Assembly (NCBI GenBank): GCA_963712905.1
Contig: CAVQJU010000014.1
Span: 49,261-113,260, forward strand
From: an uncultured Acidobacteriota bacterium
GTDB taxonomy: Bacteria > Acidobacteriota > Vicinamibacteria > Vicinamibacterales > CAVVIG01
DNA length: 64,000 nucleotides
Direction: 5' to 3'
The translations under genes and the position numbers were made by a program. Below the pieces are notes generated by a model. It searched no databases and had not been told where the DNA came from. It was given only the letters and a program-made list of their open reading frames with translations. Each line of letters starts with the position of its first letter. Position 1 is the first letter of the stretch. Positions 8,076 through 37,490 of this stretch are shown here, in pieces.

Positions 8076-8225
8076 GGGGCTGGTGGGTCAGGTGGGGCTG
8101 GAGGGTCAGGTAGGTCGGGTGGGTCGGGTAGGTCGGGTAGGGAAGGACAGCGTTTGCCTACTTGCCTCGCGTCTCAGCTGACCCACCCGACCTACCCGAC
8201 TTGCCCGGCCTACCCGACCCGCCCG
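8076..8225. repeat. inverted arrays of 9-nt tandem units ((A/G)GGTCGGGT)
   Basis: Left array aggtcgggt gggtcgggt aggtcgggt, right array acccacccg acctacccg acttgcccg gcctacccg acccgcccg. Together they could form a long imperfect hairpin between the PBP1A stop and the xdhC start. Confidence 0.8.
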
Positions 8226-12341: not shown

Positions 12342-14354
12342 ATGGATCAGTGTTACCATGAAGCGCCTTCCTCTGAGGAGTCATCACTGCACACGGAAGC
12401 TGTCGGCTCTACGTCCCCCGATGCCTTCGGTCCATTTCGCGTGCTTCATCAGATCGGTGCGGGTGCGTTGGGCCCGGTGTTCCGTGCGTACGAACCGGAC
12501 CGCGATCGGCTCGTCGCCATCAAGCTCTTCCGCCTCGATCTACCGCCCGAGCGCGTGCACCAGCTCGTGGCCGAATTCGAACAGCTGATCGCGGCGGAGC
12601 TCGATCACCCCGTCATTGCCGCGCCGCGCGCAGCCGGCATCGAAGGCGTCAACGCGTATCTCGCTCAGGACTACGTGACCGCGGAGTCGCTCGACGTCGT
12701 GATCCGCGAAGGCGGCGCGCCGCCCGTGGCCGACGCGCTGAGCATCGCCGCCCGGCTCGCGGATGCCTTGGACTACGCCGCCGACCGCCAGATCGTCCAC
12801 GGGTCGCTGCATCCGCGCGACGTGCTGCTCTCGCCGGACGATTTTCGCCTCGTGGGCCTGGGCATCACGCGCGCGCTCGAACGTGTCGGCGTGCCGGCGC
12901 CGGTCCGCCGGCCCTACACCGCGCCCGAACGCATCGGCGGCGGCGCGTGGGACCGCCGCGCGGATATCTTCAGCCTCGCGGCCATCGCCTACGAACTGGT
13001 GTGGGGCCGGCGCCTGTCCGGCACCGGCGCCCAGGCGGTCGAGGGCATCACCGACGCGCACGGTGGCCACCTGCCGGCGTTGCACGACGTGTTTGCGCGC
13101 GCGCTCGCCGACGACATGGCGGATCGGTTCGGCACCGCGTTGGAATTTTCCGCCGCGCTCGCGGGAGCGTTCGAGGGCAAGCCCGCGAAGGTCAGCCGCA
13201 TGGTCCGGCGCAACCCGGCGCCGCGGACGGCCCCCGAGCCCCGGTTGCCGCTCGACGAAGAGGGGACCGCGGAGTTGACGCTCCGCGCGCCCGAGCCTGC
13301 GCGGAATCTCGACGTCGAAGCCGAAGTCGAAGCCGTTCTCCAAAATGTCATCGAAGACGTCATCGAGCCAGATGCGCCGGTCGAAATCGGTACGGCCGAA
13401 CCCGCCGCGCCTTTCGGACTTAGCGGACTGAGCGGATCCCTCGGACCCCGTGAACCGCTCGAACCCGTCGAACCCAGTGGACCCCTCGGACCCAGTGGAC
13501 CTGTTGGACCTCTTGGACCTGGTGGTTCCAGCGAATTCGTCGAGCCCGAAGCCGCCGTCGAGGCTCCGTACGTGCAGGGCAGTTTGCTGTCGCCCGCGCC
13601 GGCTCCCGAGACATCGAGCCTGTCTCTGGTCTGGCCGCTTGCGCTGGCCGCTCTCGTTGGGGCAGCGGCCGGGTTCGGCGCTGGTTACGCCGTCGCCATC
13701 CGCGATCGTCCGGTCGCGGTTGCCAACGTCGCGCCGCCGCCGGAGAACGCAGCAGCCCCTGCGGCGGCCGCGCCGCCGGTCGTGCGGGAACCCGAAGGCG
13801 GGGCGGTCGTGTCCCGGCCTCTGCCGCCTGCTGGCTCGCCGGGAACGGCACCCGTGCCGGCGCCCGCGCGCCCTGCGCCGCCCGCGGCACCGGTCGCACC
13901 GCTCTTTGCCGGCCGCGTGCTGGTGCGTTCGACGCCGCCGGGCGCGCGCGTCTTCGTCGACGGTCACGGCGGCGGCGAGACGCCGGCCACGGTCCGGGAC
14001 CTCGCGCGCGGCGCGCACCAGGTGCGTCTCGTGCGCGAAGGCTACACGACCGTCGAGCGCCGGATCGTGATCACGGCGTCGCAGCCGACCGTGACGCTGA
14101 CCGTGCCGATGGTCAGGACGCCGCCGGCTGTGCCGGCGCGGACCGAGGCGCCGCTCACGATCGAATCGAAGCCGTCAGGCGCCGTGGTGTTCCTGGATGG
14201 CAGGCAGGTGGGGACGACGCCGCTCACGTTCCCGCTCGTCAAGGTCGGCGCCCACGCCGTGCGCATCACGCTCGAAGGCTACCGGCCGTGGTCGTCATCG
14301 GTGGACGTGAGCGCGACCGAGCCGAACCGCGTCACCGCGTCTCTGGAGCGATAG
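12342..14354 (+). CDS. Ser/Thr protein kinase-like protein (predicted pseudokinase) with TM segment and two C-terminal PEGA domains
   Basis: G-loop IGAGALGPVF and VAIK lysine are present, but HGSLHPRDV replaces HRDLKPxN and VGLG replaces DFG. APE (YTAPERI) is kept. PEGA repeats: VRSTPPGARVFVDG...YTTVER and IESKPSGAVVFLDG...YRPWSS. ATG 12342 is preferred over track start 12303, which would overlap bshC. Confidence 0.75.
   Translation: MDQCYHEAPSSEESSLHTEAVGSTSPDAFGPFRVLHQIGAGALGPVFRAYEPDRDRLVAIKLFRLDLPPERVHQLVAEFEQLIAAELDHPVIAAPRAAGIEGVNAYLAQDYVTAESLDVVIREGGAPPVADALSIAARLADALDYAADRQIVHGSLHPRDVLLSPDDFRLVGLGITRALERVGVPAPVRRPYTAPERIGGGAWDRRADIFSLAAIAYELVWGRRLSGTGAQAVEGITDAHGGHLPALHDVFARALADDMADRFGTALEFSAALAGAFEGKPAKVSRMVRRNPAPRTAPEPRLPLDEEGTAELTLRAPEPARNLDVEAEVEAVLQNVIEDVIEPDAPVEIGTAEPAAPFGLSGLSGSLGPREPLEPVEPSGPLGPSGPVGPLGPGGSSEFVEPEAAVEAPYVQGSLLSPAPAPETSSLSLVWPLALAALVGAAAGFGAGYAVAIRDRPVAVANVAPPPENAAAPAAAAPPVVREPEGGAVVSRPLPPAGSPGTAPVPAPARPAPPAAPVAPLFAGRVLVRSTPPGARVFVDGHGGGETPATVRDLARGAHQVRLVREGYTTVERRIVITASQPTVTLTVPMVRTPPAVPARTEAPLTIESKPSGAVVFLDGRQVGTTPLTFPLVKVGAHAVRITLEGYRPWSSSVDVSATEPNRVTASLER
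13416..13532 (+). repeat. in-frame 9-nt tandem array (13 units, GGACCNNNN type) inside the kinase-like CDS
   Basis: Units ggacttagc ggactgagc ggatccctc ... ggacctggt ggttccagc. They encode GLS GLS GSL GPR EPL EPV EPS GPL GPS GPV GPL GPG GSS. Confidence 0.85.
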
Positions 14355-14364: not shown

Positions 14365-14406
14365 TGGGGCTAGGGGTTAGAGGTTAGAGGTTAGGGGTTA
14401 GGGGTT
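14365..14406. repeat. heptamer tandem array (GGGGTTA/GAGGTTA, 6 units)
   Basis: Reads ggggcta ggggtta gaggtta gaggtta ggggtta ggggtta, between the kinase-like gene and carA. Confidence 0.85.
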
Positions 14407-14417
14407 AGGGACCTGGG

Positions 14418-15551: not shown

Positions 15552-15616
15552 AGGCCGGGGACCAGGGAAAAGAAGCGAGCGTTCTTCCAGCCCCTGGCCC
15601 CCAGCCCCCAGCCCCG
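15538..15616. repeat. inverted heptamer-type repeat between carA and carB
   Basis: ctagagg ctagagg ccggggaccaggg ... ccctggcccccagcccccagccccgg. The left part overlaps the carA stop. Same unit family as 2165..2199 and 14365..14406. Confidence 0.7.
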
Positions 15617-15622
15617 GAAGTA

Positions 15623-18600
15623 ATGCCAAAGCGCACCGATCTGAAACGCGTGCTCATCATCGGCTCGGGCCCGATCGTCATCGGTCAGGCCTGCGAGTTC
15701 GACTACTCGGGCAGCCAGGCCTGCAAAGCGCTGCGGAGCGAGGGCCTCGAGGTCATCCTCGTCAACAGCAACCCGGCGACGATCATGACGGACCCGGAGC
15801 TCGCGGATCGCACCTACGTCGAGCCGCTCACGCCGGAAGTTCTCGAAGCCATCATCAAGGTCGAACGGCCCGACGCGATCCTGCCGACCGTCGGCGGGCA
15901 GACGGCGTTGAACCTGGCGGTGGACCTCCACAACGCCGGCATCCTCGAGAAATACAACGTCAAACTCATAGGGGCGTCCATCCAGGCCATCAAGGTGGCG
16001 GAAGACCGGCTGCTGTTCAAGGATGCGATGCGCGAAATCGGGCTCGACGTTCCGATGAGCGGGCTCGCGCGCTCGCTCGACGAGGCGTTGAACCTGGCGA
16101 AGACGCTGGGCTTCCCGCTGGTCATTCGCCCGTCGTTCACGCTGGGCGGCGTCGGCGGCGGCATCGCCTACAACATCGAGGAATTCCGCGAGCTGGCCGA
16201 ACGCGGCGTCGAGCTGAGCCCGGTCCACGAGATCCTGGTCGAGGAATCCGTGATCGGCTGGAAGGAGTTCGAGCTCGAGGTCATGCGCGACGTCGCGGAC
16301 AACTTCGTCGTCATCTGCTCGATCGAGAACATCGACCCGATGGGCGTCCACACCGGCGACAGCATTACGGTCGCGCCGATCCTGACGCTCAGCGACAAGG
16401 AATATCAACGGATGCGCGACGCCGCGCGCCGCATCATCAGCAAGGTCGGAGTCGAGACGGGCGGGTCGAACATCCAGTTTGCCGTGAACCCGGCGGACGG
16501 CCGGATGGTCGTGATCGAGATGAACCCGCGCGTGTCGCGGTCTTCAGCGCTCGCGTCGAAGGCCACGGGCTTCCCGATCGCGAAAATCGCGGCCAAGCTC
16601 GCCCTCGGGTACCACCTCGACGAGATCCCCAACGACATCACGCGCCTCACCCCGGCCAGCTTCGAGCCGGCGATCGACTACGTCGTCGTCAAGATCCCGC
16701 GGTGGAACTTCGAGAAGTTTCCGCAGGCCGATCGGACGCTCACGACGCAGATGAAATCGGTCGGCGAGGCCATGGCCATCGGGCGGACGTTCAAGGAAGC
16801 GTTCATGAAGGGCGTCCGCTCGCTCGAGCTCGGGCGGAGCGGGCTGCTGTTCGGACCGGCGACAGGCGACCGGACCGAGGGCATCGCCGGCACGGAGGGG
16901 GAGAGCGACGCCTCGCTGCGGAAGCGCCTGGCCGTGCCGAACGATCGCCGGATGTGGGACATCTTCCGCGCGCTCGATCGCGGCTGGACGGTCCAGCAGG
17001 TCCACGAGCCGACGAACATCGATCCGTGGTTCCTGCAGCAGTTTGCCGAAATCGTCGAGCTGAAGCGGCTGGCGGAAAGCGGCCTCGAAGGGCTGTCGCC
17101 GGACGTGATGCGGCGGTTGAAGCGCGCGGGGTTCGGCGACCAGGAGATCGCGCAGGCCGCGGGGGCGACCGAGACCTCCATCCGCGAGCGGCGCGCGAGC
17201 CAGTCGCTCGCGCCGGTCTACAAGCGCGTGGACACGTGCGCGGCCGAGTTCGAGTCGTTCACGCCGTACATGTACAGCTCCTACGAGCCGACGTGCGAAT
17301 CGAACCCGAACGGGCGCAAGAAGGTGATCATCCTCGGCAGCGGGCCGAACCGCATCGGGCAGGGCATCGAGTTCGACTACTGCTGCTGCCACGCCGCCTT
17401 CGCGCTGCGCGAAGAAGGCTTCGAAACGGTGATGATCAACTGCAACCCGGAAACCGTCTCGACGGACTACGACACGGCCGACCGGCTGTATTTCCAGCCG
17501 CTGACGTTCGAGGACGTGATGGCCGTCATCGAAACCGAGCGATCGGCCGGCGGCGAGGTGTCGTGCCTCGTGCAGTTCGGGGGCCAGACGCCGCTGAAGC
17601 TCGCGCTGGCGCTCCAGCACGCGGGCGTGGCGATCCTGGGCACGTCGCCGGACTCGATCGACCTGGCCGAGGATCGCGAGCGCTTCGCGGCGTTTCTCTC
17701 CGGGCTGAACATCACGCAGCCGAAGAGCGGTACGGCGACGTCGAAAGAGCAGGCGCGCGACGTGGCCGCGTCGATCGGGTTCCCGGTCGTCGTACGGCCT
17801 TCGTACGTGCTGGGCGGACGCGCGATGGCGATCGTCTATGACACTGCGACACTCGACCGCTATATGACGCACGCCGTCGACGCGTCGCCCGAGCATCCGG
17901 TGCTCGTCGACCGGTTCCTCGAGGACGCATTCGAGTTCGACGTCGACGCCGTCGCCGACAGGACCGGCGCCGTGATCATCGGCGGCATCATGGAGCACAT
18001 CGAGGAGGCCGGCATTCATTCGGGCGACAGCTCGTGCGTCGTGCCGCCGTTCCTCTGTCCCGAACGCCATCTGCAAACCATTCGGGAGCACACGCGCCGC
18101 ATCGCCCGCGCCCTTGGCGTCGTCGGCCTGATGAACGTGCAGTTTGCGACCAAAGACGATGTGGTGTACGTGCTCGAGGTGAACCCGCGCGCGTCGCGCA
18201 CCGTCCCGTACCTGTCGAAGGCGTCGGGGACGTCGCTGGCGAAGATCGCGGCCAAGGTCATGGCCGGGCGCACGCTCGCGGAGCTGGGTATCACGCGCGA
18301 CCTGGAAGTCGCCGGTGTGTTCGTGAAAAGCCCCGTGTTCCCGTTCGTCCGGTTCCCGGGCGTGGACACGATCCTCGGCCCCGAGATGAAATCCACCGGC
18401 GAGGTGATGGGCGGGTCGAGCAACTTCGGCGTCGCCTTCGCGAAGGCGCAGCTGTCGGTGGGGCAGCGGCTGCCGGAGAGCGGCACGGCGTTCGTCAGCG
18501 TCAACAACGACGACAAAGCGAACCTCGTGCCGATCGCGCGCGACCTGTCGACGCTGGGCTTCAAGCTGATCGCGACGCGCGGCACGGCGGCCTACTTGCG

Positions 18601-18895
18601 CGCTTACGGCCTCGACGTGGGTGTGGTCTACAAGGTCAACGAGGGCCGGCCCAACATCGCCGACGAGATCGTGAACCACAAGGTGGACCTGGTCATCAAC
18701 ACGCCGCTCGGGCGCGAGTCGTTCTTCGACGACCGCATGGTCCGGCGCGCCGCGATGATGCACGAGGTGCCCTGCATCACGACGCTCACCGGCGCCGCGG
18801 CGGCCGTCCAGGCCATTCGCGGACTGCGGGAACAGGGCCTCGGCGTTCGCGCGCTGCAGGACTACTACGCAGGAATTGCCGCAGAGAAAGTCTGA
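15623..18895 (+). CDS. carB: carbamoyl-phosphate synthase large subunit
   Basis: 1090 aa with duplicated ATP-grasp halves ([19 protein letters not shown] and [19 protein letters not shown]) and a C-terminal MGS-like domain. Confidence 0.97.
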
Positions 18896-18937
18896 TCGTC
18901 GTCAGGTTCTGCCACAAGCTCCGATCGTCCCGCTCCA

Positions 18938-19004
18938 GCCACGAAGGCACGAAGGCACGAAGTTCTTGCAGGAAAAGATCTTCGTGTTTTCGTGTCTTCG
19001 TGGC
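18938..19004. repeat. CACGAAG-heptad inverted repeat (hairpin, 17-nt loop)
   Basis: gccacgaaggcacgaaggcacgaag, then ttcttgcaggaaaagat, then cttcgtgttttcgtgtcttcgtggc. Lies between carB and comEC, and the track start of comEC falls inside the right arm. Confidence 0.85.
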
Positions 19005-21505
19005 AAAGAGTGGCGACGAAACTTGCACATGTCGCTGGTGTGCGTGTTGTCGCAGCCATTCCCGCTATTGGTCTCATCGCCGGATCGGCTGCCGGTCTGG
19101 CGATTGCCGTTCCTCGTGGGCTCGCCTATGTCGTGATGGCCGCTGCCGTGGCCGGTGCGGTTCTCGCGCTCCGGTGGCAGCGGATTGCCTGGCTCGCCGG
19201 CTGCGTCGTGGCGGGCTTCGCGGCCGGAGGCGCGCTTCTGTCTTCCGACGCGTGGCAGCGCGCCCGGCAGTCGTCGCTGCGGATTGCGTTCGACGAGCTC
19301 GCCCGCGCGCGCAGGACTGAGGCCGTCGCGGCTGGCCGCGGTGTTCCGGAGGACCCCTCGGCGTTCGCGTTCGTCGAAGGCGCGCTGCGGAGCGACGCCT
19401 CGGCCGGCGCTGCCGGCGTGTCGCTAAACCTGGACGTCGATCGCGTTAGTGGCCCCGGCGGCCCAGGCGTCGACCGCGCCGTCGCCGGGGGCGTCCGCAC
19501 CACAGTGGCCGGCACGTTCGCGCCCGCCTTGATGGGGCAGTGGCGCGCCGGCCGGAGGGTGCGGCTGCCGGTGGATCTGCATCGCGCCGCGCGCTATCTC
19601 GACGAGGGTGTGCCCGACGCCGAGCGGGCTCTGCAGATGCGAGGCACATCGCTCCTCGGGACCACGAAAAGCGGAGCCCTGGTGGAGGTGGTGGCGCACG
19701 CCGGCTGGCTCGACGAGCGGATGGCGGACGCCCGCGCGCTCTCGCGGCGCGCGATCGGCGACGCCGTCGGCCGGTGGAGCGCCCGTTCCTCGGCGATCGT
19801 CACGGCCATCGTGATCGGCGACCGTGCCGGCCTGGACGACGATGTGGAGCGGCGGCTGCAGGAGGCCGGGACGTATCACGTCATCGCGATTTCGGGCGGC
19901 AATATCGCGATCCTCGCCGGCCTGATGATCGCCGGGTTCCGGCTGGCCGGTCTGCTCGGACGAACCGCGATGCTGGCGTCGATCGTCCTGCTGCTGGCCT
20001 ATGGGCGCCTGGTCGGTGGTGGCGCATCGGTCGATCGCGCGACGCTCATGGCGGTTGTCTACCTCGCCGCCCGTGCCGCTGACCAGCGCAGCCCGCCGCT
20101 GAACGCGCTCGCGTGCGTCGTCGTGTGCCTGCTGGCAGCGGAACCGTTGTCGGTCGCCGACCCGGCGTTCGTCCTGACGTTCGGCGCGACCCTCGCGATC
20201 CTCGCCGCCGGGCCGTTGCTGGCGTCGCGCCGTCGTCCACGATTCCTCGCGCCCGTGTTGGCGCTGTTCGCTGCCTCCGCCGCCACCGAAGCGCTGTTGA
20301 TGCCCGTCGGCGCGATCCTCTTTTCGCGGGTCACTTTCGCCGGCCTCGCCCTGAACTTCCTGGCGATTCCGCTGATGGCCGTCACCCAGGTCGCCGGCAT
20401 GGCCCTCGTACCCGCGGCGTTCGTCGCGCGCTGGCTGTCGCTGGCGTGCGGCCTGGTCGCGCATGCGGGCGCCACCGGCCTCGTCTGGTCGGCCGATCTC
20501 GTCCGGTTTGCGCCCTTCGCGACGTTCAGGGTTGCCGCGCCGGGCTGGCCGTGCGTCGCGATCTACTACGGGGCGCTCGTTGTCGCCTGGTTCCGCCCGC
20601 GCTCGCTTGTGCCGCTGACCGCTGCCGCCGGCGCGGCTATCTGGATGGTCGCCCAGCCCTGGACGCTGGCGGCCTCCGCGGGCGATGGCCGGCTTCACAT
20701 GACGTTTCTCGACGTGGGCCAGGGCGACTCGGCGTTCCTCAAGTTCCCAAATGGCGCCACGCTGCTTGTCGATACCGGCGGCCTCGTTTCGAGCGGTTCA
20801 GGTTTCGACATCGGCGACCGCGTCGTTGCGCCGCCGCTCCGGATTGCCGGTGTCCGCCGCCTCGACTCCCTCGTCCTCACGCACGGCGACCCCGATCACA
20901 TCGGTGGGGCAGGCGCGATCCTGCGTGAGTTCAGGCCACGCGAGGTGTGGGAGGGCATTCCCGTCCCGCGCTCCGAGCCGCTCATGGCGCTGCGCGCCAC
21001 CGCCGGGGAACTCGGACTGCGGTGGACAAACGTGAGGACTGGCGACCACGCGAACATCGATGGGGTCGATGTCGTCGTCAAACACCCCGACCCCGCCGAC
21101 TGGGAGCGGCAACGCGTACGTAACGACGACTCCATCGTCGTGGATGTGCGGTGGCGGGACGTCTCGATTGTGTTGACCGGCGATATCGGGAAGGCCGTCG
21201 AACGGACCATATCAGGGCGACTGCGGCCTTCACCGCTGCGCGTCGTGAAGATCCCGCATCACGGCAGCCTGACTTCGAGCACCACGGAGTTCATCCGCGC
21301 GCTCCGGCCGCAAGTCGCCGTCGTCAGCGTCGGCCGGGCCAACCGTTTCGGACATCCCGTGCCGGAGGTGCTCGACCGGTACCACGAAGCCGGTGCAGAC
21401 ATCTTCCGCACCGACCGCGACGGTGCCGTCACTGTCGATACTGACGGCTACTCCCTCGACGTCCACACCTTCACGGGCCGACCGTCTGAGGCTATCCCGC
21501 CCTAA
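18992..21505 (+). CDS. comEC: DNA internalization-related competence protein ComEC/Rec2 with C-terminal metallo-beta-lactamase domain
   Basis: Polytopic competence domain (GTYHVIAISGGNIAILAG) and MBL domain (LHMTFLDVGQGDSAFLKFPNGATLLVDTG, LTHGDPDHIGG). Start is uncertain; GTG 19010 and others are possible. Confidence 0.85.
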   Translation: MSSWQRVATKLAHVAGVRVVAAIPAIGLIAGSAAGLAIAVPRGLAYVVMAAAVAGAVLALRWQRIAWLAGCVVAGFAAGGALLSSDAWQRARQSSLRIAFDELARARRTEAVAAGRGVPEDPSAFAFVEGALRSDASAGAAGVSLNLDVDRVSGPGGPGVDRAVAGGVRTTVAGTFAPALMGQWRAGRRVRLPVDLHRAARYLDEGVPDAERALQMRGTSLLGTTKSGALVEVVAHAGWLDERMADARALSRRAIGDAVGRWSARSSAIVTAIVIGDRAGLDDDVERRLQEAGTYHVIAISGGNIAILAGLMIAGFRLAGLLGRTAMLASIVLLLAYGRLVGGGASVDRATLMAVVYLAARAADQRSPPLNALACVVVCLLAAEPLSVADPAFVLTFGATLAILAAGPLLASRRRPRFLAPVLALFAASAATEALLMPVGAILFSRVTFAGLALNFLAIPLMAVTQVAGMALVPAAFVARWLSLACGLVAHAGATGLVWSADLVRFAPFATFRVAAPGWPCVAIYYGALVVAWFRPRSLVPLTAAAGAAIWMVAQPWTLAASAGDGRLHMTFLDVGQGDSAFLKFPNGATLLVDTGGLVSSGSGFDIGDRVVAPPLRIAGVRRLDSLVLTHGDPDHIGGAGAILREFRPREVWEGIPVPRSEPLMALRATAGELGLRWTNVRTGDHANIDGVDVVVKHPDPADWERQRVRNDDSIVVDVRWRDVSIVLTGDIGKAVERTISGRLRPSPLRVVKIPHHGSLTSSTTEFIRALRPQVAVVSVGRANRFGHPVPEVLDRYHEAGADIFRTDRDGAVTVDTDGYSLDVHTFTGRPSEAIPP

Positions 21506-21508
21506 TAG

Positions 21509-21539
21509 CCACGAAGATCACGAAGACACGAAGAAGAGG
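21509..21539 (+). repeat. CACGAAG-heptad repeat, left arm flanking the GxxExxY pseudogene
   Basis: ccacgaagatcacgaagacacgaagaagagg, directly after the comEC stop. It is the near reverse complement of 21955..21982. Confidence 0.85.
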
Positions 21540-21589
21540 ATTCATGTTGAGAGTGGAAAGCACGCTGCCGTGGCGAAATCGAAGCCACG

Positions 21590-21944
21590 ATGCGGAAGAC
21601 CATAGGCTGCTGCATCAACGTGCATCGTGAACTCGGTCCGGGCCTGCTCGAGAGCACGTTTGCGACGAGCGGTGTGTCTCGAGCTTGATGCGGCCGGAGT
21701 ATCATTCGAAGTCGAAAAGCATGATCCCGGTGACCTATCGCGGCGATATCTCTTGTGTCATCACCGGCTCGATCTCGTGGTAGCAGGTCAGGTCGTTGTG
21801 GAGATTAAGGCCGTCGATCGATTAGCCCCCGTGCACCACGCGCAGTTGCTGAACTATCTGCGTGTCTCAGGGCTTCGGGCCGGCCTTCTTATCAACTTCA
21901 ACGTGCCGGTGCTTCGGGACGGCATCAGGCGCATTGTGCTCTGA
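21590..21944 (+). pseudogene. GxxExxY-family (PD-(D/E)XK nuclease-like) gene disrupted by about three frameshifts
   Basis: Family-typical text is spread over three frames. These are MRKTIGCCINVHRELGPGLLESTF (frame of 21590), RAVCLELDAAGVSFEVEK and LDLVVAGQVVVEIKAV...LLNYLRVSGLRAGLLINFNVPVLRDGIRRIVL (frame of 21627), and MIPVTYRGDI (third frame). Confidence 0.7.
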
Positions 21945-21954
21945 TTGTGGAGCG

Positions 21955-21982
21955 TTTCTTCGTGTCTTCGTGCCTTCGTGGC
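21955..21982 (-). repeat. CACGAAG-heptad repeat, right arm flanking the GxxExxY pseudogene
   Basis: tttcttcgtgtcttcgtgccttcgtggc is the reverse complement of gccacgaaggcacgaagacacgaagaaa. It pairs with the left arm across a roughly 415-bp cargo. Confidence 0.85.
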
Positions 21983-21994
21983 GACCAAGCCCGG

Positions 21995-22798
21995 CTATCC
22001 AGCTCGTTGCGCGGACTTAGCCTGTTGCCACTCCTGTTCCAGTTCCTCCAGGCTCATGGCGCCCATGGTCCGGCCGGCTTGCGCGACGGACTGTTCCATT
22101 GTCTCGAAGCGCTTCGTGAACTTGTCGTTCGCCTTGCGCAACGCGGTTTCGGGCTCGATCCCGAGTTGCCTCGACAGGTTCGCGATGGAAAAGAGCAGGT
22201 CGCCCATCTCCTCCTCGGCGCGCGCGTGGTCGGTCGGCGCGCTCCCGGCGACCACTTCCCGCAGTTCGCCGACCTCTTCTTGGATCTTGTCGACGACGTC
22301 GGTGGGCCGGGACCAGTCGAACCCGACCGACCGGGCACGCAGGCCGATCTGGTAGGCCCGGAGCAGGGCAGGGAGGGCCGCCGGGACGCCTCCAAGGAGA
22401 GTCTTCGGTTTCGCCGAGGCGCCGCGCTCCTGGGCCTTGATTTGCTCCCAGCGCGTCAGGACTTCGGCGGAGCCGATCGCCACGTCACCCTCACGGCGGT
22501 CGAACACATGCGGATGCCGCCGAACCAGCTTGTCGGCGACGCCGGTGAGTGCGTCGGCGACGGTGAAATGTCCCGCTTCGGCCTCGAGTTGCGCCACGAA
22601 CACGGCTTCGAAGAGAAAATCCCCGAGCTCCTCGCAGAGCGAGGCGTGGTCGTGGCGGTCGATGGCCTCGAGCACCTCGTAGGTCTCCTCGAGCACGTAG
22701 GGCTTCAGCGTGTCGATGGTCTGCTCGCGGTCCCACGGGCAGCCGCCCGGTGCCCGAAGTGTGGCGACGATGTCAACAAGGCGCGCGAACTCCTGCAT
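21995..22798 (-). CDS. mazG: nucleoside triphosphate pyrophosphohydrolase MazG
   Basis: LRAPGGCPWDREQT, LEETYEVLEAID and a second EExGDLLF repeat. Confidence 0.9.
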   Translation of the reverse strand: MQEFARLVDIVATLRAPGGCPWDREQTIDTLKPYVLEETYEVLEAIDRHDHASLCEELGDFLFEAVFVAQLEAEAGHFTVADALTGVADKLVRRHPHVFDRREGDVAIGSAEVLTRWEQIKAQERGASAKPKTLLGGVPAALPALLRAYQIGLRARSVGFDWSRPTDVVDKIQEEVGELREVVAGSAPTDHARAEEEMGDLLFSIANLSRQLGIEPETALRKANDKFTKRFETMEQSVAQAGRTMGAMSLEELEQEWQQAKSAQRAG

Positions 22799-22838: not shown

Positions 22839-23111
22839 ATGCCTGAACTCTCCTTTCCCGCCTTCATCGTGTCGCTGGCCACCACGGCGGCGATCCATCT
22901 CGGAGACTTGGCCGATCCCGCGACCGGCGAGAAGCTCGAGCCGAACCTCGAGGGCGCCGCGCAGATGATCGCCATCCTCGCGCTGCTCGAAGAGAAGACG
23001 CGCGGCAACCTGACGGCGGAAGAACGTCAGATGCTGGAGCAGATCCTCTACGAGCTTCGGGTCCGCTTCCTCCAGGCCAGCGGCGAGACATCGCGCATCA
23101 TCCAGCCGTGA
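22839..23111 (+). CDS. DUF1844 domain protein
   Basis: 90 aa; FIVSLATTAAIHLGDLADP...NLEGAAQMIAILALLEEKTRGNLT pattern as recalled for DUF1844. Confidence 0.65.
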   Translation: MPELSFPAFIVSLATTAAIHLGDLADPATGEKLEPNLEGAAQMIAILALLEEKTRGNLTAEERQMLEQILYELRVRFLQASGETSRIIQP

Positions 23112-23959
23112 GCGGCCTGCCCGCGCCGCGTCCGTTCCGCGTGACGATGCTGGGGACGGGTACGTCGAGCGGGGTCCCGGCCATCGGCTGCGAGTGCGCG
23201 GTCTGTCGATCGACCGATCCGCGCGACCGCCGGACCCGGCCGTCGATCCTGCTGGATTTTGGTGACAGGGGTGACGTGGGTGACCGGGGCAACGGGGCAG
23301 TCGGCGCCGTTGCCGGATCGGTCCGGCACGTGCTCGTCGACACGTCCACCGATTTGCGCGCGCAGGCGCTCGCGAACGACGTCCGCCGCGTGGACGCGAT
23401 CCTCTTCACGCACGCCCACGCGGACCACGTCTTCGGGATCGACGAAGTGCGGCGGTTCAATCACATGCAGCGGTCGCCGATCCCGATCATGGCGTCGCCG
23501 GACGTCCTCGCGGACATCCGTCAGATGTTCGCGTACATCTTCAACCCGCCGCCGGCCCACGGCGGTGGCGTGCCCAAGCTGGTGCCGTTTGCGATCGGCG
23601 GTCCGTTCTCGCTCGGCGGCTTCGAGGTCGTGCCCGTGCCGGTGATGCACGGCCCGCTCCCGGTCCTCGGGTTCCGCATCGGTACGTTCGCGTACCTCAC
23701 CGACTGCAACGAGATCCCGGAGGACTCGTGGGCCCTTCTCGGCGGCGTGCGCACGCTCGTGCTCGACGCGCTCCGCGAGCGTACGCATAGCACACACTTC
23801 AGCGTCGATCAGGCTCTCGCCGTCGTCGCCCGGTTGAAGCCCGAACGCGCGTACTTCACGCACATCGCCCACGACCTCGCGCACGACGCCACCTGCGCGC
23901 GCCTGCCCGCGGGTGTGGAGTTGGCTTATGATGGCCAGGTGCTGGAGATTCGCGGCTAA
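23108..23959 (+). CDS. MBL-fold metallo-hydrolase (PhnP-like)
   Basis: LGTGTSSGVPAIGCECAVC, FTHAHADHVFGIDE (HxHxDH) and 4-nt overlap with the upstream gene. Carries an in-frame repeat insertion. Confidence 0.8.
   Translation: MSGLPAPRPFRVTMLGTGTSSGVPAIGCECAVCRSTDPRDRRTRPSILLDFGDRGDVGDRGNGAVGAVAGSVRHVLVDTSTDLRAQALANDVRRVDAILFTHAHADHVFGIDEVRRFNHMQRSPIPIMASPDVLADIRQMFAYIFNPPPAHGGGVPKLVPFAIGGPFSLGGFEVVPVPVMHGPLPVLGFRIGTFAYLTDCNEIPEDSWALLGGVRTLVLDALRERTHSTHFSVDQALAVVARLKPERAYFTHIAHDLAHDATCARLPAGVELAYDGQVLEIRG
23261..23314 (+). repeat. in-frame 9-nt tandem array plus hairpin inside the MBL hydrolase CDS
   Basis: ggtgacagg ggtgacgtg ggtgaccgg ggcaacggg gcagtcggc gccgttgcc, encoding GDR GDV GDR GNG AVG AVA. 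ggcaacgg/ccgttgcc form an 8-bp inverted repeat. Confidence 0.8.
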
Positions 23960-26817: not shown

Positions 26818-27180
26818 ATGACCGAAGCGCGGATGGCGTTGGGGAAAAGCGGCGAAGATCTCGCGTGCCGCGAGCTCGAGCGCCGCGGGTACGCAATTGT
26901 TGCCCGCCGCTTTCGTGTCCGCAGTGGAGAATTGGACATCGTCGCGCGCGACGGAGCGGTGCTGGTGTTCGTGGAAGTGAAAACGCGCTCGGGCCGGCAG
27001 TTCGGCGCGGGGGCCGAAGCCGTGACGTTCACGAAACAGCGGCGGATCGCTCAGCTGGCCAGCGAATATCTGCTGCGGCACAGAATGTCAGACTGTCCGT
27101 GCCGTTTCGACGTCGTGTCCGTCACCGTTGGCGCCGGCGCGCCCGACGTCGAGATAATCCGGAACGCCTTCGACGCCTGA
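26818..27180 (+). CDS. yraN: YraN-family endonuclease (UPF0102)
   Basis: GKSGEDLACRELERRGYAIVARRFR...GELDIVARDGAVLVFVEVKTR. ATG 26818 is preferred over track start 26800. Confidence 0.8.
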   Translation: MTEARMALGKSGEDLACRELERRGYAIVARRFRVRSGELDIVARDGAVLVFVEVKTRSGRQFGAGAEAVTFTKQRRIAQLASEYLLRHRMSDCPCRFDVVSVTVGAGAPDVEIIRNAFDA

Positions 27181-27184
27181 ACCG

Positions 27185-27226
27185 TGAACCGTGAACCTTG
27201 AACCCTGAACCTTGAACCTTGAACCC
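27185..27226. repeat. heptamer tandem array (TGAACCN, 6 units)
   Basis: tgaaccg tgaacct tgaaccc tgaacct tgaacct tgaaccc between yraN and the galT-like gene. Confidence 0.85.
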
Positions 27227-27236
27227 TGATTCCTTG

Positions 27237-28347: not shown

Positions 28348-28560
28348 ATGATGTCCAGACGTAATGGCGATCGTTCGCGATTCCAGGTCAACCGAAAGCG
28401 GAGGCTGCGGCACCGCGAGCGAATCCAGACCTTGAAAAAGGCGCTGAAGGCGGGCGCGGCCGCCGGCGTGCAGCCCGCGGTCGCGGCTCCCGCCCCTGTG
28501 GCCCCTGTGGCCGCTGTGGCCCCTGTCGCGCGGGCCCGTAAGAAGCCGGCCGTCGGTTGA
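28348..28560 (+). CDS. hypothetical small basic protein
   Basis: ATG-ATG at 28348 after gaaagg; text is MMSRRNGDRSRFQVNRKRRLRHRERIQ. The C-terminal half is a (GCCCCTGTG)x4 9-nt repeat, so coding status is doubtful. Confidence 0.3.
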   Translation: MMSRRNGDRSRFQVNRKRRLRHRERIQTLKKALKAGAAAGVQPAVAAPAPVAPVAAVAPVARARKKPAVG

Positions 28561-29951: not shown

Positions 29952-30020
29952 AGCTAAGCGACCTGAACGGTCTGTACCTGGTTCTGACCGATCGGCGCAA
30001 GACGCCCTGGGACGTGGATG

Positions 30021-31135
30021 CTACCGCGGCAGGTGAACGACGATCGTCGTTCCTGCGCCAGGCCGGCTCTCGGCACGGATCGTCCCGCCGTGCGCCTCGA
30101 CGAGGCCGCGCGCGATCGTCAGCCCGAGCCCCGAGCCTGACGAACCGGCGCCTTTGTAGAAGCGATCGAAGATGCGCGGCAGCTCCTCGGCGGAGATGCC
30201 CGCGCCGGTGTCGGCGACCCTGACTTCCACGCTGTCTGCCGCCGGCGCGGCTGCCGACGCCGACGAGCACACGCCCGCCGCGCGGCGTGTAGCGCAGCGC
30301 ATTGGCCACGAGGTTGGTCAGCACCTCGCGGATTCGCAGCGGATCGATCGCGATCGGCTCGATTTCATCCGGCGAATCCGTCTCCACCCGCAACGCGACG
30401 CCGGCGCTCTCCGCATGCGCGGAAAGCGACGAGACGACGTCGTTCGCCAGCGCGAGGATGTCGGTCGGTTCCTTCGAGAGCGCCAGCGCGCCGCTCTCGG
30501 CGGTGGAAAGCGTCCGCAGGTCCTCGACGAGCCTGCCAAGCACGCGCGTGTCTTCGAGCAGGCCCTGCAGCCGTTCGTCGTCTCTGGGGTAGACGCCGTC
30601 GAGGAGCCCCTCGAGCTTTCCCTGCACGATCGCGAGCGGCGTGCGCAGCTCGTGCGCGATGTCGGCCATCAGGTGGCGGCGCGCCTTGTCCTGCGCGTCG
30701 AGCTCGCTCGCCATCGCGTTGAACGCGCGCGCCGTGTCGCCGACCCACGCCGGCCCGAACTCGGGCTCGCGGACGCGCACGTCGTAGTCGCGGTGCGCGA
30801 TCCGGTCGGCGGCGGAGACGATGTCGGCGACCGGGCCGGCGATGCGGCGGATGATGATGGCGACGGCGCCGGCCACCGCGGCGCACACGAGGAGCAGGGC
30901 GATGCCGCCGCCGAATGGAAACCCGCCGCCGAAGCCCCGCGCGGCCGGAGCTCGCGACCAGCCAGAGAAGGACCCACAGCGGCCAGAAGCTGTACCAGCC
31001 GCTTCGCCGGACGAACCGCGCGCGCCGGTGCTCGCGAAGAGACCGGCCGCCCGCGCGGCGGCCAGGGCTCGTCGTGCGGCCACCAGGGCGGTGGCGAACG
31101 GTCGTACCGCGGGGGAGCGCCGCGCCAGCGGTCAT
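30021..31135 (-). pseudogene. sensor histidine kinase (HAMP-HisKA-HATPase) split over two or three frames
   Basis: H-box MADIAHELRTPL and N-box NLVANALRYTP lie in the frame of ORF 29944..31083. G-boxes DTGAGI and GSGLGLTIARGLVEAHGG lie in the frame of ORF 30021..302. An ATGA-coupled start at 31135 with TM-like WYSFWPLWVLLWLVA lies in a third frame. Confidence 0.75.
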
Positions 31136-31812
31136 GCTTCGGCGAACTTGTAGCCGATGCCGTAGACCGTCAGCACGTAGCGGGGCCGATGCGGATCGCG
31201 CTCGAGCTTCCGGCGGACGTTCTTCACGTGCGCGTCGATCGCACGCTCGAACGATTCGACCTCCGTGCCGCGCACGGCATCGAGCAGCTGCGCGCGCGTG
31301 AACACGCGGCCGGGATGGCGGGCCAGCGCGCTGAGCAGCTGGAATTCCGTCGCGGTCAGGTCGATCGGCGTGCCGCGCCGCTCGACGCGCATCTTCGCGA
31401 CGTCGATCGACAGATCGGCGACGTCGAACTGCGCGCCGGCCGCCGGCGCGTACCGCGCCCGCCGCAGCACGCTCGACACGCGCGCGACGAGCTCGCGCGG
31501 ACTGAACGGCTTGGTGATGTAGTCGTCGGCGCCGACCTCGAACCCGGCGAGCCGATCGGTTTCGTCCACGCGCGCCGTCAGCATGATGATCGGCACGTCC
31601 GATTCGCGCCGCAGGGCGCGGGCGACCTCGAGGCCGTCGAGGCGCGGCAGCCCGAGGTCGAGCACGACGAGGTCCGGCCGCTTCTGGCGCGCCATCTCCA
31701 GGCCGCTCGCGCCGTCCGTCGCGACCGTCACCGAGAAGCCCGCGCGCGTCAGGTAGTCCCGCGCGATGGTCGCGATCTGCCGCTCGTCGTCGACGACGAG
31801 AACGGTGGGCAT
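31132..31812 (-). CDS. OmpR-family response regulator
   Basis: Receiver (VLVVDDE, DLVVLDLGLP, KPF) and winged-helix output (YVLTVYGIGYKF). Confidence 0.9.
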   Translation of the reverse strand: MPTVLVVDDERQIATIARDYLTRAGFSVTVATDGASGLEMARQKRPDLVVLDLGLPRLDGLEVARALRRESDVPIIMLTARVDETDRLAGFEVGADDYITKPFSPRELVARVSSVLRRARYAPAAGAQFDVADLSIDVAKMRVERRGTPIDLTATEFQLLSALARHPGRVFTRAQLLDAVRGTEVESFERAIDAHVKNVRRKLERDPHRPRYVLTVYGIGYKFAEA

Positions 31813-32069
31813 GGCGGAAGAGGACCGCGCGACGGCCGCGCGGTCCTCTCGATCCTATGTGATCGGGCCCTGATTGGAACTCGACGCCGAACGTCGCGCT
31901 TCGATCGGTCCATGCGCTCGTGCTCCCGGCGATGCCATTCTTCCCAGTCGTCGCGCTCGTCGTAGTAGTAGCGGCGGTAGTGGCGGCCGTAGCGCCACGG
32001 GCCGTAGCAGCGGCCACCCCACCACATCCAGCGGAGCCCGCCGAAGACCCAGAACAGCAGGAAGAACAC
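31749..32069 (-). CDS. hypothetical small membrane protein, W/Y/R-rich
   Basis: GTG start; FFLLFWVFGGLRWMWWGGRCYGPWRYGRHYRRYYYDERDDWEEWHRREHER. The 3' part overlaps the response-regulator start by 64 nt, so the true extent is unclear. Confidence 0.3.
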   Translation of the reverse strand: MFFLLFWVFGGLRWMWWGGRCYGPWRYGRHYRRYYYDERDDWEEWHRREHERMDRSKRDVRRRVPIRARSHRIERTARPSRGPLPPCPPFSSSTTSGRSRPSRGTT

Positions 32070-32331
32070 CCAGATGCCGCCAAACCCGCTGTGGCGCCAG
32101 CACGCACGGGTTCGGCCGCGAGCGCGCCGGCCTCACGCTGCGCGCCGAAGCTGTAGGCCGACGACGGCCACCACCACGAGCGCCAGCGATGTGATTGCCC
32201 AGGGGACCCACGGCGCGCGACGTTCCATTCGATCTCGATCGTCCATTACTCAGTCCTTTCTCCTTCCGCGATGTCGACAAGGAGAGTCTGGCGATCGATT
32301 GTGGAGAGATTGTGAAGAGAGGCGGCTGCGG

Positions 32332-33138
32332 CTATTGCGCGGGTTGTGCGTGCGGCCACACCGGGCTGATCAGCTCCACGCGCCAGAGCGGAGCACCCAT
32401 GTAGAACAGCTGTTCGGATTTCACGAACGCCGGCACATCGCCCGCGAGGATCCACACATGGGAATCGGGCGGCTGTTTGCCGACGATGGGCGCGACAAGG
32501 CCGGCCAGCCCGCCGATGTCGACCTTCACGACGTAGTGGATGGCTTTGCGCCGCATGCCGCCTGTCGAAAACGTCTCCTCGGCGGCAGACGCGAGCTTCA
32601 ACTTGACCAGCCGTGGTTTCGGCGTCGCAACGACCAGCGACAGTTCCGCCGGTACGGCTCCCGCGCGCACGTTCTTCAAGAGCGTCAGCATCATGCCGTT
32701 CGAGAGGTCGGCGGCGGGCAACTTCAGGCGCTCGCTCTCGGTTTTCTGCTGGCCGTGGTCGTCCGTGTACCGCACCGTGGCCAGGCCGGACGCGTCGATC
32801 GTCATGTCGAGCGTGCGCGGAAACGATGGCCCTTTCTGACTGAGGTGATAGCTCACGAGGCGGAACCGGCCCTGCTGCGAGTAGACGCTCGTTTCGTCGT
32901 GCGTCGACTTGTCCTTGAAATGAAAAACCAGCCGGCTGGTCACGCGAGTGCCCTGGGCCGTCTGGAGCAGATCCCCATCGGCGAGCGGGGTTCCATCGGT
33001 CGTGCTGAGCTTCAGGAAGCCGTGGACCAGCCCTTCAGTGAAGCGGACGGGCACCGGCTCACTGTCTGCCGCGATCGAGCAGAGCAGGAGGCCGGCGATG
33101 AGGGATGCGATGGTAAAGCGGAGGTGAGTGCGAGTCAT
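32332..33138 (-). CDS. hypothetical secreted protein
   Basis: 268 aa with signal peptide (FTIASLIAGLLLCSIAA). Beta-rich text and no family recognised. Confidence 0.55.
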   Translation of the reverse strand: MTRTHLRFTIASLIAGLLLCSIAADSEPVPVRFTEGLVHGFLKLSTTDGTPLADGDLLQTAQGTRVTSRLVFHFKDKSTHDETSVYSQQGRFRLVSYHLSQKGPSFPRTLDMTIDASGLATVRYTDDHGQQKTESERLKLPAADLSNGMMLTLLKNVRAGAVPAELSLVVATPKPRLVKLKLASAAEETFSTGGMRRKAIHYVVKVDIGGLAGLVAPIVGKQPPDSHVWILAGDVPAFVKSEQLFYMGAPLWRVELISPVWPHAQPAQ

Positions 33139-33200
33139 GCTCGAATCCCGGCAGAGAGTCGAGCAACAAGAGTGCCGGGCGCGGTCAGCTTGAGGATGGG

Positions 33201-33857
33201 CTACCGCGTTTCATGAAGCAAATCGTGCACCTCCTGGTCTGTGGTCTCTGAGAAATCGCGATACCACTGTCCGACGGCGGTGAAATGCTCAGGCGTGCGT
33301 GGGCAAACAACCTCGTCGGCGAAGTCGGCGAGTTCCCGGCAAGTGTCGGGCGAACCGACTGGAACCGCGACAACGATGCGCGATGGACCGTCCGCCCGGA
33401 CAGCCTGAACTGCCGCTTTCATTGTCGAGCCGGTCGCCAGGCCGTCATCCACCAGCAGGACGATGCGATCGCGGAGCTCGAGCGGCGCCCGGCCAGCCCG
33501 ATACGTGCGTTCTCGACGGGCGAGCTCGCCCTGCTCTTCACGCGTGATGTCATCAACGACGGCGGCGGGAACGCCGTACCAGCTGATAACGTCCTCGTTG
33601 AGAACCCGCACGCCACCGGAGGCAATCGCACCCATCGCAAGCTCGCCATGGCCCGGCAGCCCGAGCTTTCTGACCAGGAGGATATCGAGCGGCGCGTTCA
33701 GTGTGCGAGCGACTTCGTGCGCGACCGGCACGCCTCCGCGCGGCAATGCCAGGACCACGACATTGCCACGGCCCTGAAGGTGTCCGACGTGTGCCGCCAA
33801 TTCAATGCCCGCCTGCCGGCGGTCTTCGTACGGCTCTTGATGAAATCCTGTGGCCAC
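33201..33857 (-). CDS. phosphoribosyltransferase-family protein
   Basis: VVLALPRGGVPVAHEVA and PRPP loop IVLLVDDGLATGSTMKAAV. Confidence 0.8.
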   Translation of the reverse strand: MATGFHQEPYEDRRQAGIELAAHVGHLQGRGNVVVLALPRGGVPVAHEVARTLNAPLDILLVRKLGLPGHGELAMGAIASGGVRVLNEDVISWYGVPAAVVDDITREEQGELARRERTYRAGRAPLELRDRIVLLVDDGLATGSTMKAAVQAVRADGPSRIVVAVPVGSPDTCRELADFADEVVCPRTPEHFTAVGQWYRDFSETTDQEVHDLLHETR

Positions 33858-33889
33858 GAAGCCGTCCTTGTCCGCTGATGGTGCAAGCA

Positions 33890-34205
33890 GGATACCTCCG
33901 CCGGCCGTCGCCGATCACTTCGAGTGCGGCCAGATGCTGCGCGTCACGCAGGATGACCTTGGCGATGCCAACTCGATCCACGGCGCGCATGGCCTCGCGG
34001 AGCAGGGCGTAAGCGTGACCACCAGGTCGGCCCAGGCCACCGGCCGCCCCTCGCGCTCGCACACCCGCTCGAACTTGACGGGCGACCGGTCGGCGGCGTG
34101 CAGCATGCGGAACCGGGGGCGGTGATCGCGAACGGCGACGTGCAGTTCGACTGGGATGCTGACCAGGCCGAACGCAAGGGATTCCTTCCAAATGGCGCGA
34201 GGCAT
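33890..34205 (-). pseudogene. ku: Ku (NHEJ) gene remnant with internal deletion and 3' truncation
   Basis: MPRAIWKESLAFGLVSIPVELH...VKFERVCEREGRPVAWADLV (about 62 aa of the Ku N-terminus). It then jumps frame directly to HAYALLREAMRAVDRVGIAKVILRDAQHLAALEV (mid-Ku), and the rest is missing. Confidence 0.7.
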
Positions 34206-34509
34206 GACGCCGCGTTTGCACCCGCTGTGCCAGGTGAGCCGACCGTTGGCGCGCACGCATGAGATCGCTGGCCAGGTATCGGATGTTGTGTTTCCGCCCG
34301 CTGTGTAGGAATAGACGACAGAACTATTCGGGCAGTGGGTCGGGAATCGGATTGGTCGGCGGAGGATCCGGCGTGGGCTCCGGGAGCGGCTCGGGCGGCG
34401 GCAAAGGCTCAGGCTCGGGCATCGGCGGACGTGGAGTTGTCGGAATCGCACTGGTCATCATCTGCTGATCGAGTAAGCCCCTTGCCGCCGCAGGGGTAAA
34501 CTGAGCCGC

Positions 34510-35220
34510 GTGACCGTTTCGCTCCTGCCGTCCTCCCGCAAGGGAGTCCTTGTCGCCCTTGCGAGCGTTATCGCGATCGCCGCCCTCGCTCACATGGCGG
34601 CGACGCTCGTCGAGTTCACGTCGGGCGACCCGGACATCTTCACGCGCTTCCACCTCGGCGAAATCCGGCGGGAGTTCGATCTCGAATCGGAATCGAACGT
34701 CACGACGTGGTTCTCGTCGGCCATGCTCCTGTTCTGCGCGCTGCTCCTCAGCGCGATTGGCCGCGCCAAGCGTCGCGCGGGGGATGGCCTCGCGGGCTAT
34801 TGGCTGCTGCTCGCGGTCGTGTTCCTGCTCGCCTCGATCGACGAGACCGCGATGCTGCACGAGGCGACGATGCGTCCGCTGACCGAGCGGCTGCACCCCT
34901 CGGGCGTGTTCTTTTACGCGTGGGTCGTGTTGGGCCTGCCGTTCGTGATCGTCTTCGGCATCGTCAACCTGAGATTTCTGAAGCGGCTGCCGCGCCGGAC
35001 CCGGCTCGAGTTCATCGTGGCCGGCGCGGTGTACCTGGGGGGAGCGCTCGGGCTGGAGATGGTCGAAGGCGTCATTGCCACTCGGATAGGTGCTGGCAGC
35101 TTCGTGATGTTCGCGGCGCGATGGCTGGAAGAAGTCATGGAGATGTGCGGCGTGCTGCTGTTCCTCGGCGCGCTCCTCCGCTACATCGCCGAGGAGCTTC
35201 CGGCCGAATCACGCGGCTGA
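34510..35220 (+). CDS. hypothetical polytopic membrane protein
   Basis: 236 aa with about 6 hydrophobic segments and conserved-looking acidic residues (SIDETAMLHE, LEEVMEM). Confidence 0.6.
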   Translation: MTVSLLPSSRKGVLVALASVIAIAALAHMAATLVEFTSGDPDIFTRFHLGEIRREFDLESESNVTTWFSSAMLLFCALLLSAIGRAKRRAGDGLAGYWLLLAVVFLLASIDETAMLHEATMRPLTERLHPSGVFFYAWVVLGLPFVIVFGIVNLRFLKRLPRRTRLEFIVAGAVYLGGALGLEMVEGVIATRIGAGSFVMFAARWLEEVMEMCGVLLFLGALLRYIAEELPAESRG

Positions 35221-35261
35221 GCGCCGGAATACGTGGTGTAGGATTACCGCCGAGGTCTCCG

Positions 35262-36062: not shown

Positions 36063-36173
36063 GACGTTCCCGATCGGGTGTCCACGCCTGCGGTGCACAA
36101 TCGTGCTTGCGATCGCCAACCGCAGGCGTAGACCCCGGCACGCGAATTCGAACGCGCCGCCAGCGGTTGACGG

Positions 36174-37065: not shown

Positions 37066-37080
37066 TGGGAGGAAACTCTG

Positions 37081-37461: not shown

Positions 37462-37490
37462 GTGCACGCTATTTGGACAGGAGGTTTTGA

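Follow-up and report, generated by a model that had tools for sequence, protein, structure and literature searches.

A decayed GxxExxY nuclease-like gene between inverted CACGAAG arms, a likely dead copy of a heptad-hairpin cassette in the comEC-mazG slot of an uncultured acidobacterium

Within a 64,000-nucleotide stretch of DNA from an uncultured Acidobacteriota bacterium (assembly GCA_963712905.1, contig CAVQJU010000014.1, positions 49,261 to 113,260; hereafter, the window), the genes comEC and mazG flank a 475-bp unit at positions 21508 to 21982, made up of two inverted arms with three CACGAAG units each around a gene of the GxxExxY family. We consider it likely, the mechanism proposed below included, that this unit is a dead copy of a self-contained "heptad-hairpin cassette" in the comEC-mazG slot. 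An intact cassette of this kind would hold a PD-(D/E)XK (GxxExxY) gene of ∼130 codons whose start codon directly follows a 5′ arm made of three purine-rich CACGAAG units and whose stop is followed by a complementary 3′ arm. Sequence comparison among relatives shows that the gene and its arms make up a single unit, inherited, transferred, and replaced as a whole. The arms resemble terminal inverted repeats in their behavior and keep a fixed inside/outside polarity; each GxxExxY paralogue in a genome has a unit type of its own; and arrays of such units are almost confined to relatives that have the gene family.

The left (5′) arm lies on the plus strand at 21508 to 21540, with CACGAAG at 21510, 21519, and 21527 in the layout GCCACGAAG-AT-CACGAAG-A-CACGAAG-AAGAGG. 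Its inner purine run, GAAGAAGAGG (21530 to 21539), is Shine-Dalgarno-like and ends 4 nt upstream of an ATG. The right (3′) arm, at 21955 to 21982 (listed on the same strand), is complementary to the left one, carries CTTCGTG at 21958, 21966, and 21974, and reads TTTCTTCGTG-T-CTTCGTG-C-CTTCGTGGC. A perfect 17-nt inverted repeat (21519 to 21535 and 21956 to 21972) joins the two arms, and their outermost 9 bp, GCCACGAAG and CTTCGTGGC, also pair. When the RNA of 21500 to 21990 was folded, the arms paired with each other in both the minimum free energy (MFE) and the centroid structures (z = −4.3). Adjacent CACGAAG pairs number 10 in the window versus 0 in 100 shuffles. The preliminary description of this DNA had proposed inverted CACGAAG-heptad arms around a GxxExxY gene, wedged between the comEC stop and the convergent mazG stop. 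The arm coordinates, the 17-nt repeat, and the profile matches of the gene bear out the first point, and the positions of the stops bear out the second: the comEC TAA (21503 to 21505) is 2 nt ahead of the stem and the mazG stop (21995 to 21997) is 12 nt past it. The cassette has the orientation of comEC. A promoter scan within the cassette found none, and one weak terminator-like site was seen at 21936 to 21955; an Rfam search of 18500 to 22500 gave no rRNA match.

The cargo is a GxxExxY/PDDEXK_3 pseudogene at 21544 to 21944 on the plus strand, with its ATG at 21544 and a TGA at 21942 to 21944, as delimited by tblastn with intact relatives and by profile matches. It matches PF13366 with 76.8 bits (cutoff, 22), the N-terminal piece matching separately, and TIGR04256 (GxxExxY) over 21627 to 21944 with 81.3 bits (cutoff, 35). 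The window copy has no intact open reading frame (ORF). Text homologous to intact relatives is scattered over three frames (21544 to 21570, 21575 to 21664, and 21666 to 21941 by tblastn), as the preliminary description had claimed, and a compensated double shift lies inside the gene around 21709 to 21762. In total, the reading frame changes four times between 21570 and 21762, with two of the shifts cancelling out. The catalytic D (in RLDL) and the E-x-K (in VEIK) can still be read; the name-giving motif appears as GPGLLESTF, with F in place of Y, in a frame different from that of the core.

The preliminary description had counted three frameshifts in ∼150 bp and had taken them for real decay. 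The count has to be raised to four by tblastn, but the decay itself is probably real: in the same assembly carB (3.3 kb), comEC (2.5 kb), and mazG are unbroken, as are 12 of 13 four-helix-bundle genes, and four indels in ∼190 bp next to intact neighbors make an ordinary assembly error unlikely. That the gene is intact and its frame changes stem from indel errors in a metagenome assembled from long reads, an explanation that would account for the decay only, is therefore very improbable. The assembly has a completeness of 88% and 23 contigs, and mazG looks frameshifted in one congener (G001), so that indel errors do occur in the assembly set; against this, the four indels compare with none in ∼10 kb of neighboring or comparable genes, at least the first two lie outside homopolymer runs, and decayed or truncated copies stand at the same junction in independent assemblies. 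We infer that the CACGAAG cassette gene has decayed in this genome, leaving its hairpin family without an intact cognate gene.

To follow the history of the slot, we compared the comEC-mazG junction in 14 relatives (G000 denotes the window's own genome, and other G numbers denote relatives). The content of this junction, which the preliminary description had named as a check on insertion, varies among them. A cassette is present in G001 to G004, G006, G014, G016, and G021; G010 keeps only a 3′ gene fragment and the right arm; G024 has a tiny remnant; and G009 and G012 are empty, with spacers of 25 bp and 58 bp. In G005 and G018, comEC was not found beside mazG. The junction gene is intact in G002, G004, G014, and G016, the arms being of the CACGAAG type in G004 and G016, and is decayed in the other genomes. 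In the closest congener, G002, the flanks are 89 to 91% identical to those of the window and the cassette, whose arms are CACAAAG/CACCAAG, is only 53% identical; for G001, the corresponding values are 83 to 92% and 59%. The cassettes of G001, G003, and G004 resemble one another about as much as their flanks do (67 to 71% versus 72 to 80%). High flank identity stops at the 3′ end of each host gene, and the closest relatives of the window copy are cassettes from other genera. One slot is thus occupied by at least three cassette lineages within one genus, which on these alignments is replacement and not in-place divergence.

Some further details of the junction stand apart from this comparison. 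Between congeners, the two host genes diverge at their ends, precisely where the cassettes are different. In G002 (L006, G002:C3:132900-134900), the comEC frame seems to enter the replacement cassette through its left arm, and the C-terminal tail of the protein would be altered as a result. The G021 junction (L014, G021:C12:510000-512000) has a spacer enlarged to ∼1.7 kb that contains several CACGAAG-type hairpins, nested or in tandem, along with a decayed GxxExxY gene and extra sequence.

The layout extends to the whole GxxExxY family. We scored 80 loci from Acidobacteriota, Chloroflexota, Planctomycetota, Verrucomicrobiota, Proteobacteria, Nitrospirota, Cloacimonadota, Gemmatimonadota, Bacteroidota, Cyanobacteria, and Spirochaetes, with 139 shifted positions as controls. 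A bracketing inverted repeat scoring at least 14 was found at 60 of 79 loci and at 0 of 139 controls, for which the maximum was 11. The polar arm layout (CRCNRAG type), defined as at least two sense C-R-S-N-V-A-G units upstream and at least two antisense units downstream, was present at 63 of 77 loci versus 7 of 139 controls; the opposite polarity was seen at 6. These figures, together with the other two GxxExxY copies of G000 and most copies from the 14 relatives, answer in the affirmative the question of the preliminary description of whether GxxExxY genes are systematically flanked by repeats. The commonest arm unit is CACAGAG (88 occurrences), with CACGAAG in fourth place (17). On the protein tree, arm type changes 24 times versus 30 to 32 times in ten sets of shuffled values. 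A CGCAAAG clade unites proteins of Gemmatimonadota, Desulfobulbus, and Acidiferrobacteraceae, and one CACGAAG clade unites those of Verrucomicrobiota, Planctomycetota, and a deltaproteobacterium; the window's copy belongs to a second, well-supported CACGAAG clade. Judging from this tree, arm type follows the protein and not the host, and arms and gene therefore travel as one unit.

The window's own genome (66.7% G+C, 6.3 Mb) contains only three PF13366 genes. All three are enclosed by inverted arms of tandem units, the unit type differing from gene to gene; besides the window copy, there is an intact gene with CACRGAGG arms at C2:107537-107887 and a gene with one frameshift and CACGCRGAG arms at C8. 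The same build is seen for all 13 genes of the PF05635 four-helix-bundle family, each with a different unit (GGTTCAG, CAGTCRG, GGGCARA, and GGTAGGTCG among them), so that small cargo genes lie between inverted arms in 16 of 16 cases (3 PF13366 and 13 PF05635). The spacing of inverted array pairs has a second peak at ∼435 to 535 bp, which corresponds to the cargo-gene cassettes. The PF05635 ("23S rRNA intervening sequence [IVS] protein") cassettes are located on C1, C2, C3, C5, C7, C9, C10, C12, C16, C17, C20, C21, and C23, and the gene on C17 is decayed. Read-through expression was considered as a general model and rejected: the upstream gene is co-oriented at 3 of 3 GxxExxY cassettes but at 6 of 13 four-helix-bundle cassettes, by crude gene calls based on third-codon-position G+C (GC3).

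The arms are not confined to the window cassette and belong to a genome-wide family of ∼55 arrays. In G000, CACGAAG forms 66 arrays of at least two units and 55 of at least three, with one CACGAAG cassette; there are 19 clean hairpins (3+3 units, loop of ∼20 nt) and several others with one degenerate arm. CRCNRAG arrays of at least three units number 298 (CACAGAG, 110; CGCAGAG, 75; CACGAAG, 55; CACAAAG, 14), and all 93 CRCNRAG hairpins have the purine-rich arm 5′ (93:0). Array density is highest in convergent intergenic regions (0.245/kb), followed by tandem (0.172) and divergent (0.070) ones, that is, gene 3′ ends are favored. By the state of the gene, array counts in G000 are 110 where it is intact, 75 with one frameshift, 55 for the decayed copy of the window, and 14 with no gene; that array number tracks gene integrity within this genome is suggestive and rests on four families only. 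Many CACGAAG elements (in G000, G001, G003, and G004) terminate in an extended palindrome, TCATCACGAAG ... CTTCGTGATGA, with TGA triplets on the outgoing strand at both ends.

Among 41 relatives, with kinship ignored, the presence of a PF13366 match and that of triple CRCNRAG arrays go together (table of 23/0/1/17; Fisher P = 1.2e-10; Spearman coefficient, 0.80). All 23 genomes with PF13366 have at least 9 triple arrays (median, 104), and 17 of the 18 genomes without a match, which are spread over several genera, have 6 or fewer, most of them none. There are one to seven PF13366 matches per genome, and paralogues differ in unit type in G000 and in most relatives with readable arms, a typical set being CACGAAG at the junction and CACAGAGG and a CGCAGAG 9-mer elsewhere.

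Gene-less hairpins follow the cassettes. A CACGAAG hairpin without a gene (18938 to 19004, no strand assigned; 3+3 units, 17-nt loop) lies between carB and comEC, 2.5 kb from the cassette. The same slot holds a hairpin in seven genomes, and its unit is that of the genome's cassette (CACAAAG in G002, CCCGAAG in G014, and CACGAAG in the others); CCCGAAG arrays are found only in G014, with 33 versus 0 to 2 elsewhere. An Rfam identity for this empty hairpin was rejected, the matches being chance microRNA-like ones only. A second gene-less CACGAAG hairpin (7144 to 7217, no strand assigned) has a degenerate left arm and lies between two minus-strand genes; orthologous sites carry, in G002, a CACAAAG-type element that is complete and has termini of its own and, in G004, only a 28-nt remnant. 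A solo arm of three CACGAAG units is present at 60355 to 60380 on the minus strand, and the orthologous site of G002 has no array; no target-site duplication was seen in this present/absent comparison (at 60300, G000 versus G002). Over ∼60 kb of synteny at 88 to 90% identity, G000 and G002 use the same intergenic slots, often with different array families (GGTAGGTCG versus a GGCAGGC type, and GGTTAGG versus GTTCTAA). Window positions 29960 to 42670 (∼12.7 kb) have no counterpart in the otherwise collinear G002 and represent an indel or island.

These observations suggest a mechanism in several steps. The GxxExxY nuclease may cut its own arrays as a hairpin, a cruciform, or a single-stranded form, and host repair or replication would then copy or overwrite elements in intergenic slots. 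The gene-less hairpins would be nonautonomous derivatives, comparable to miniature inverted-repeat transposable elements (MITEs) or to REPINs, hairpins formed by repetitive extragenic palindromic (REP) sequences. On read-through transcripts, the stem of at least 27 bp could serve as a substrate for RNase III, as in the 23S rRNA IVS, and if it were cut there, the insert would do little harm to the host operon. The view of the preliminary description that the unit is a formerly mobile cassette gains support from the family-wide arms, their tracking of the protein tree, the same-slot replacement in G002, the co-occurrence of genes and arrays, and the 93:0 polarity. More tentatively, GxxExxY nucleases might be the trans-acting partners of CRCNRAG hairpins in a second pan-bacterial system like that of REPINs and REP-associated tyrosine transposases (RAYTs). 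Such a system would be persistent and mostly vertical, would be built on a PD-(D/E)XK nuclease, and would have a single gene for each unit family. The four-helix-bundle cassettes and the 23S rRNA IVS would then be sister forms of the same element class, and all would compete for, and overwrite one another in, fixed intergenic slots. We see this broader scheme as possible rather than probable.

Several results weigh against the mobile-cassette reading and its mechanism. Target-site duplications, for which the preliminary description had suggested a search, are not visible: no direct repeat was seen beside the cassette arms, and no insertion footprint, transposase, or integrase was found. The same junction is occupied in at least nine genera, so movement must be rare and inheritance mostly vertical. 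Since unrelated unit families swap in the same slots, homology-driven conversion, as far as the aligned slots tell, cannot be the general route. One genome of the same order, G037 (86% complete, 400 contigs), has 231 triple CRCNRAG arrays and no detectable PF13366. The idea that gene integrity sets array number across genomes was rejected, as a broken gene does not go along with fewer arrays: the counts of CACGAAG pairs are 108 in G000, 133 in G001, 154 in G003, and 196 in G006, all with a broken cognate gene, and 94 in G004 and 44 in G016, where it is intact. Selection on the stem as sense-strand RNA was likewise rejected, G.U and A.C mismatches being balanced in the arms of ∼60 cassettes (40 versus 37) with no sense-strand asymmetry. 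Covariation between protein residues and unit type offers only one or two well-supported independent transitions and hence low power. The four-helix-bundle cassettes have the same build without a nuclease, and the enzyme that confers mobility may therefore not be the cargo. Finally, the nuclease activity of the GxxExxY protein and its substrate are predicted, and a sequence search found no solved structure of a relative.

Could the hairpins instead belong to the host? They might be REP-like terminators, mRNA stabilizers, or processing sites, with GxxExxY genes as passengers able to insert only there and the arms as their target. Such an origin would fit the location of arrays mainly at gene 3′ ends, the filling of identical slots in relatives, and the persistence of arrays where the gene is broken or absent. 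However, arm type tracks the protein clade across phyla and not the host, the arms were swapped along with the gene at comEC-mazG, and a selected hairpin has no need of a 93:0 polarity. Relatives without the gene are, moreover, essentially without arrays, indicating that the host does not need them, and we therefore regard host ownership as unlikely.

It is also improbable, in our judgment, that the cassette is an immobile, ancient resident that has always been at comEC-mazG, with the differences between congeners arising from relaxed, fast divergence and concerted evolution of the arms. Its presence at the junction in G001 to G004, G006, G014, G016, and G021, the remnant in G010, and the orthologous look of the G001, G003, and G004 copies (67 to 71% versus 72 to 80% in the flanks) are what this history would leave behind. 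Yet the divergence between G000 and G002 is 47% for the cassette versus 9 to 11% for the flanks, even though the G002 gene is intact; the window copy groups with other genera; close relatives of the cassette occur in different phyla; and empty junctions exist.

As for the protein, AlphaFold models a relative as a minimal PD-(D/E)XK core, with a predicted local distance difference test (pLDDT) score of 96. Its Foldseek neighbors are generic PD-(D/E)XK proteins (Cas4 SSO0001 and lambda exonuclease, with template modeling [TM] scores of ∼0.5, and also Bax1, splicing endonuclease, and Hjc), and no specific activity can be inferred from such generic neighbors. Literature searches indicate that both GxxExxY (PF13366) and the four-helix-bundle family (PF05635) are very common in bacteria and of no known function. 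Full-text searches found neither a functional study of GxxExxY/PF13366 nor a description of its repeat arms, and PF13366 is entered as "Unknown" in PMC3424549.

Elsewhere in the window, many intergenic regions contain arrays or hairpins of other families with 7- to 9-nt units (GGGGCTR, GGTAGGTCG, GGTTAGG, GGTTCAR, CAGTCRG, and others), located at 2165 to 2197, 8109 to 8200, 13415 to 13520, 14366 to 14412, 15590 to 15617, 27175 to 27230, 28491 to 28526, 38059 to 38119, and 42355 to 42381. Genome-wide, tandem arrays or hairpins of 7- to 9-nt units number ∼980. An ORF for a metallo-β-lactamase (MBL)-fold hydrolase (23108 to 23959) includes a short repetitive stretch at ∼23259 to 23320 (GDRGDVGDRGNGAVGAVAG) that resembles an array incorporated in frame.

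The locus and its relatives tie a very common family of no known function to a defined DNA partner, under testable rules: the polarity of the arms is fixed, each unit type has a single gene, genes and arrays occur together, and cassettes are replaced in the same slot between relatives. Were the link causal, it would explain the origin of the hairpins of 7- to 9-nt tandem repeats in many intergenic regions of G000, place the 23S rRNA IVS inside a much larger class of elements, and reveal nucleases with a possibly programmable, repeat-defined specificity. The relatives, as far as their sequences allow, point to an undescribed repeat-plus-gene system of IVS-like build. New here are the test of co-occurrence, the rule of one gene for each unit, the finding that all hairpins share one polarity (93:0), and the turnover of slots between congeners.

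The closest known things are the ORF-bearing 23S rRNA IVS and the REPIN/RAYT systems; two other kinds of repeat invite a more distant comparison. MITEs and their autonomous parents likewise combine fixed-polarity terminal inverted repeats, one coding copy, and many short noncoding copies, but here no transposase or target-site duplication was found, and the same intergenic slots are used in related genomes. The short tandemly repeated repetitive (STRR) heptanucleotide sequences of cyanobacteria are intergenic 7-nt tandem arrays with several families per genome, like the heptad arrays described here; we know of no cognate gene or inverted-arm cassette described for them.

The IVS of Coxiella is 428 nt long and has a terminal stem of 28 bp; three tandem heptads precede the start of its ORF, which is decaying, and RNase III excises the element (PMC4990558). 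The 23S rRNA IVS of Coxiella burnetii and Leptospira (PMC4990558) share with our unit, at 475 nt versus 428 nt in Coxiella, the terminal inverted repeats, the long stem that these form (27 to 28 bp with one bulge), and the tandem heptads immediately ahead of the ORF. The ORF is decay prone in both, and both are regarded as selfish, horizontally acquired, and then vertically kept. Unlike the IVS, which are found in helix 45 of 23S rRNA, the unit described here lies between the stops of two protein-coding genes, comEC and mazG; its cargo is a PF13366 PD-(D/E)XK protein, not the S23p four-helix bundle (PF05635); and tens of gene-less hairpins with the same unit accompany it. RNase III excision is a feature of Coxiella and would apply to the window unit by analogy only.

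REPIN/RAYT systems (PMC3116915, PMC3337134, bioRxiv 10.1101/2021.07.10.451892) also have a low-copy gene inside its own inverted repeats and tens to hundreds of dispersed, gene-less palindromic copies, for which the counterpart here is 3 genes versus 298 arrays and 93 hairpins. One gene per repeat family, the co-occurrence of gene and repeat, and largely vertical inheritance are further points in common. The two differ in the protein, a PD-(D/E)XK nuclease here versus an HUH/Y1 transposase related to TnpA of IS200/IS605, and in the repeat, arrays of 7- to 9-nt tandem units here versus GTAG-headed REP hairpins. They differ, too, in that the gene here sits in the loop of the hairpin and that the cassettes cross phyla and are replaced in place.
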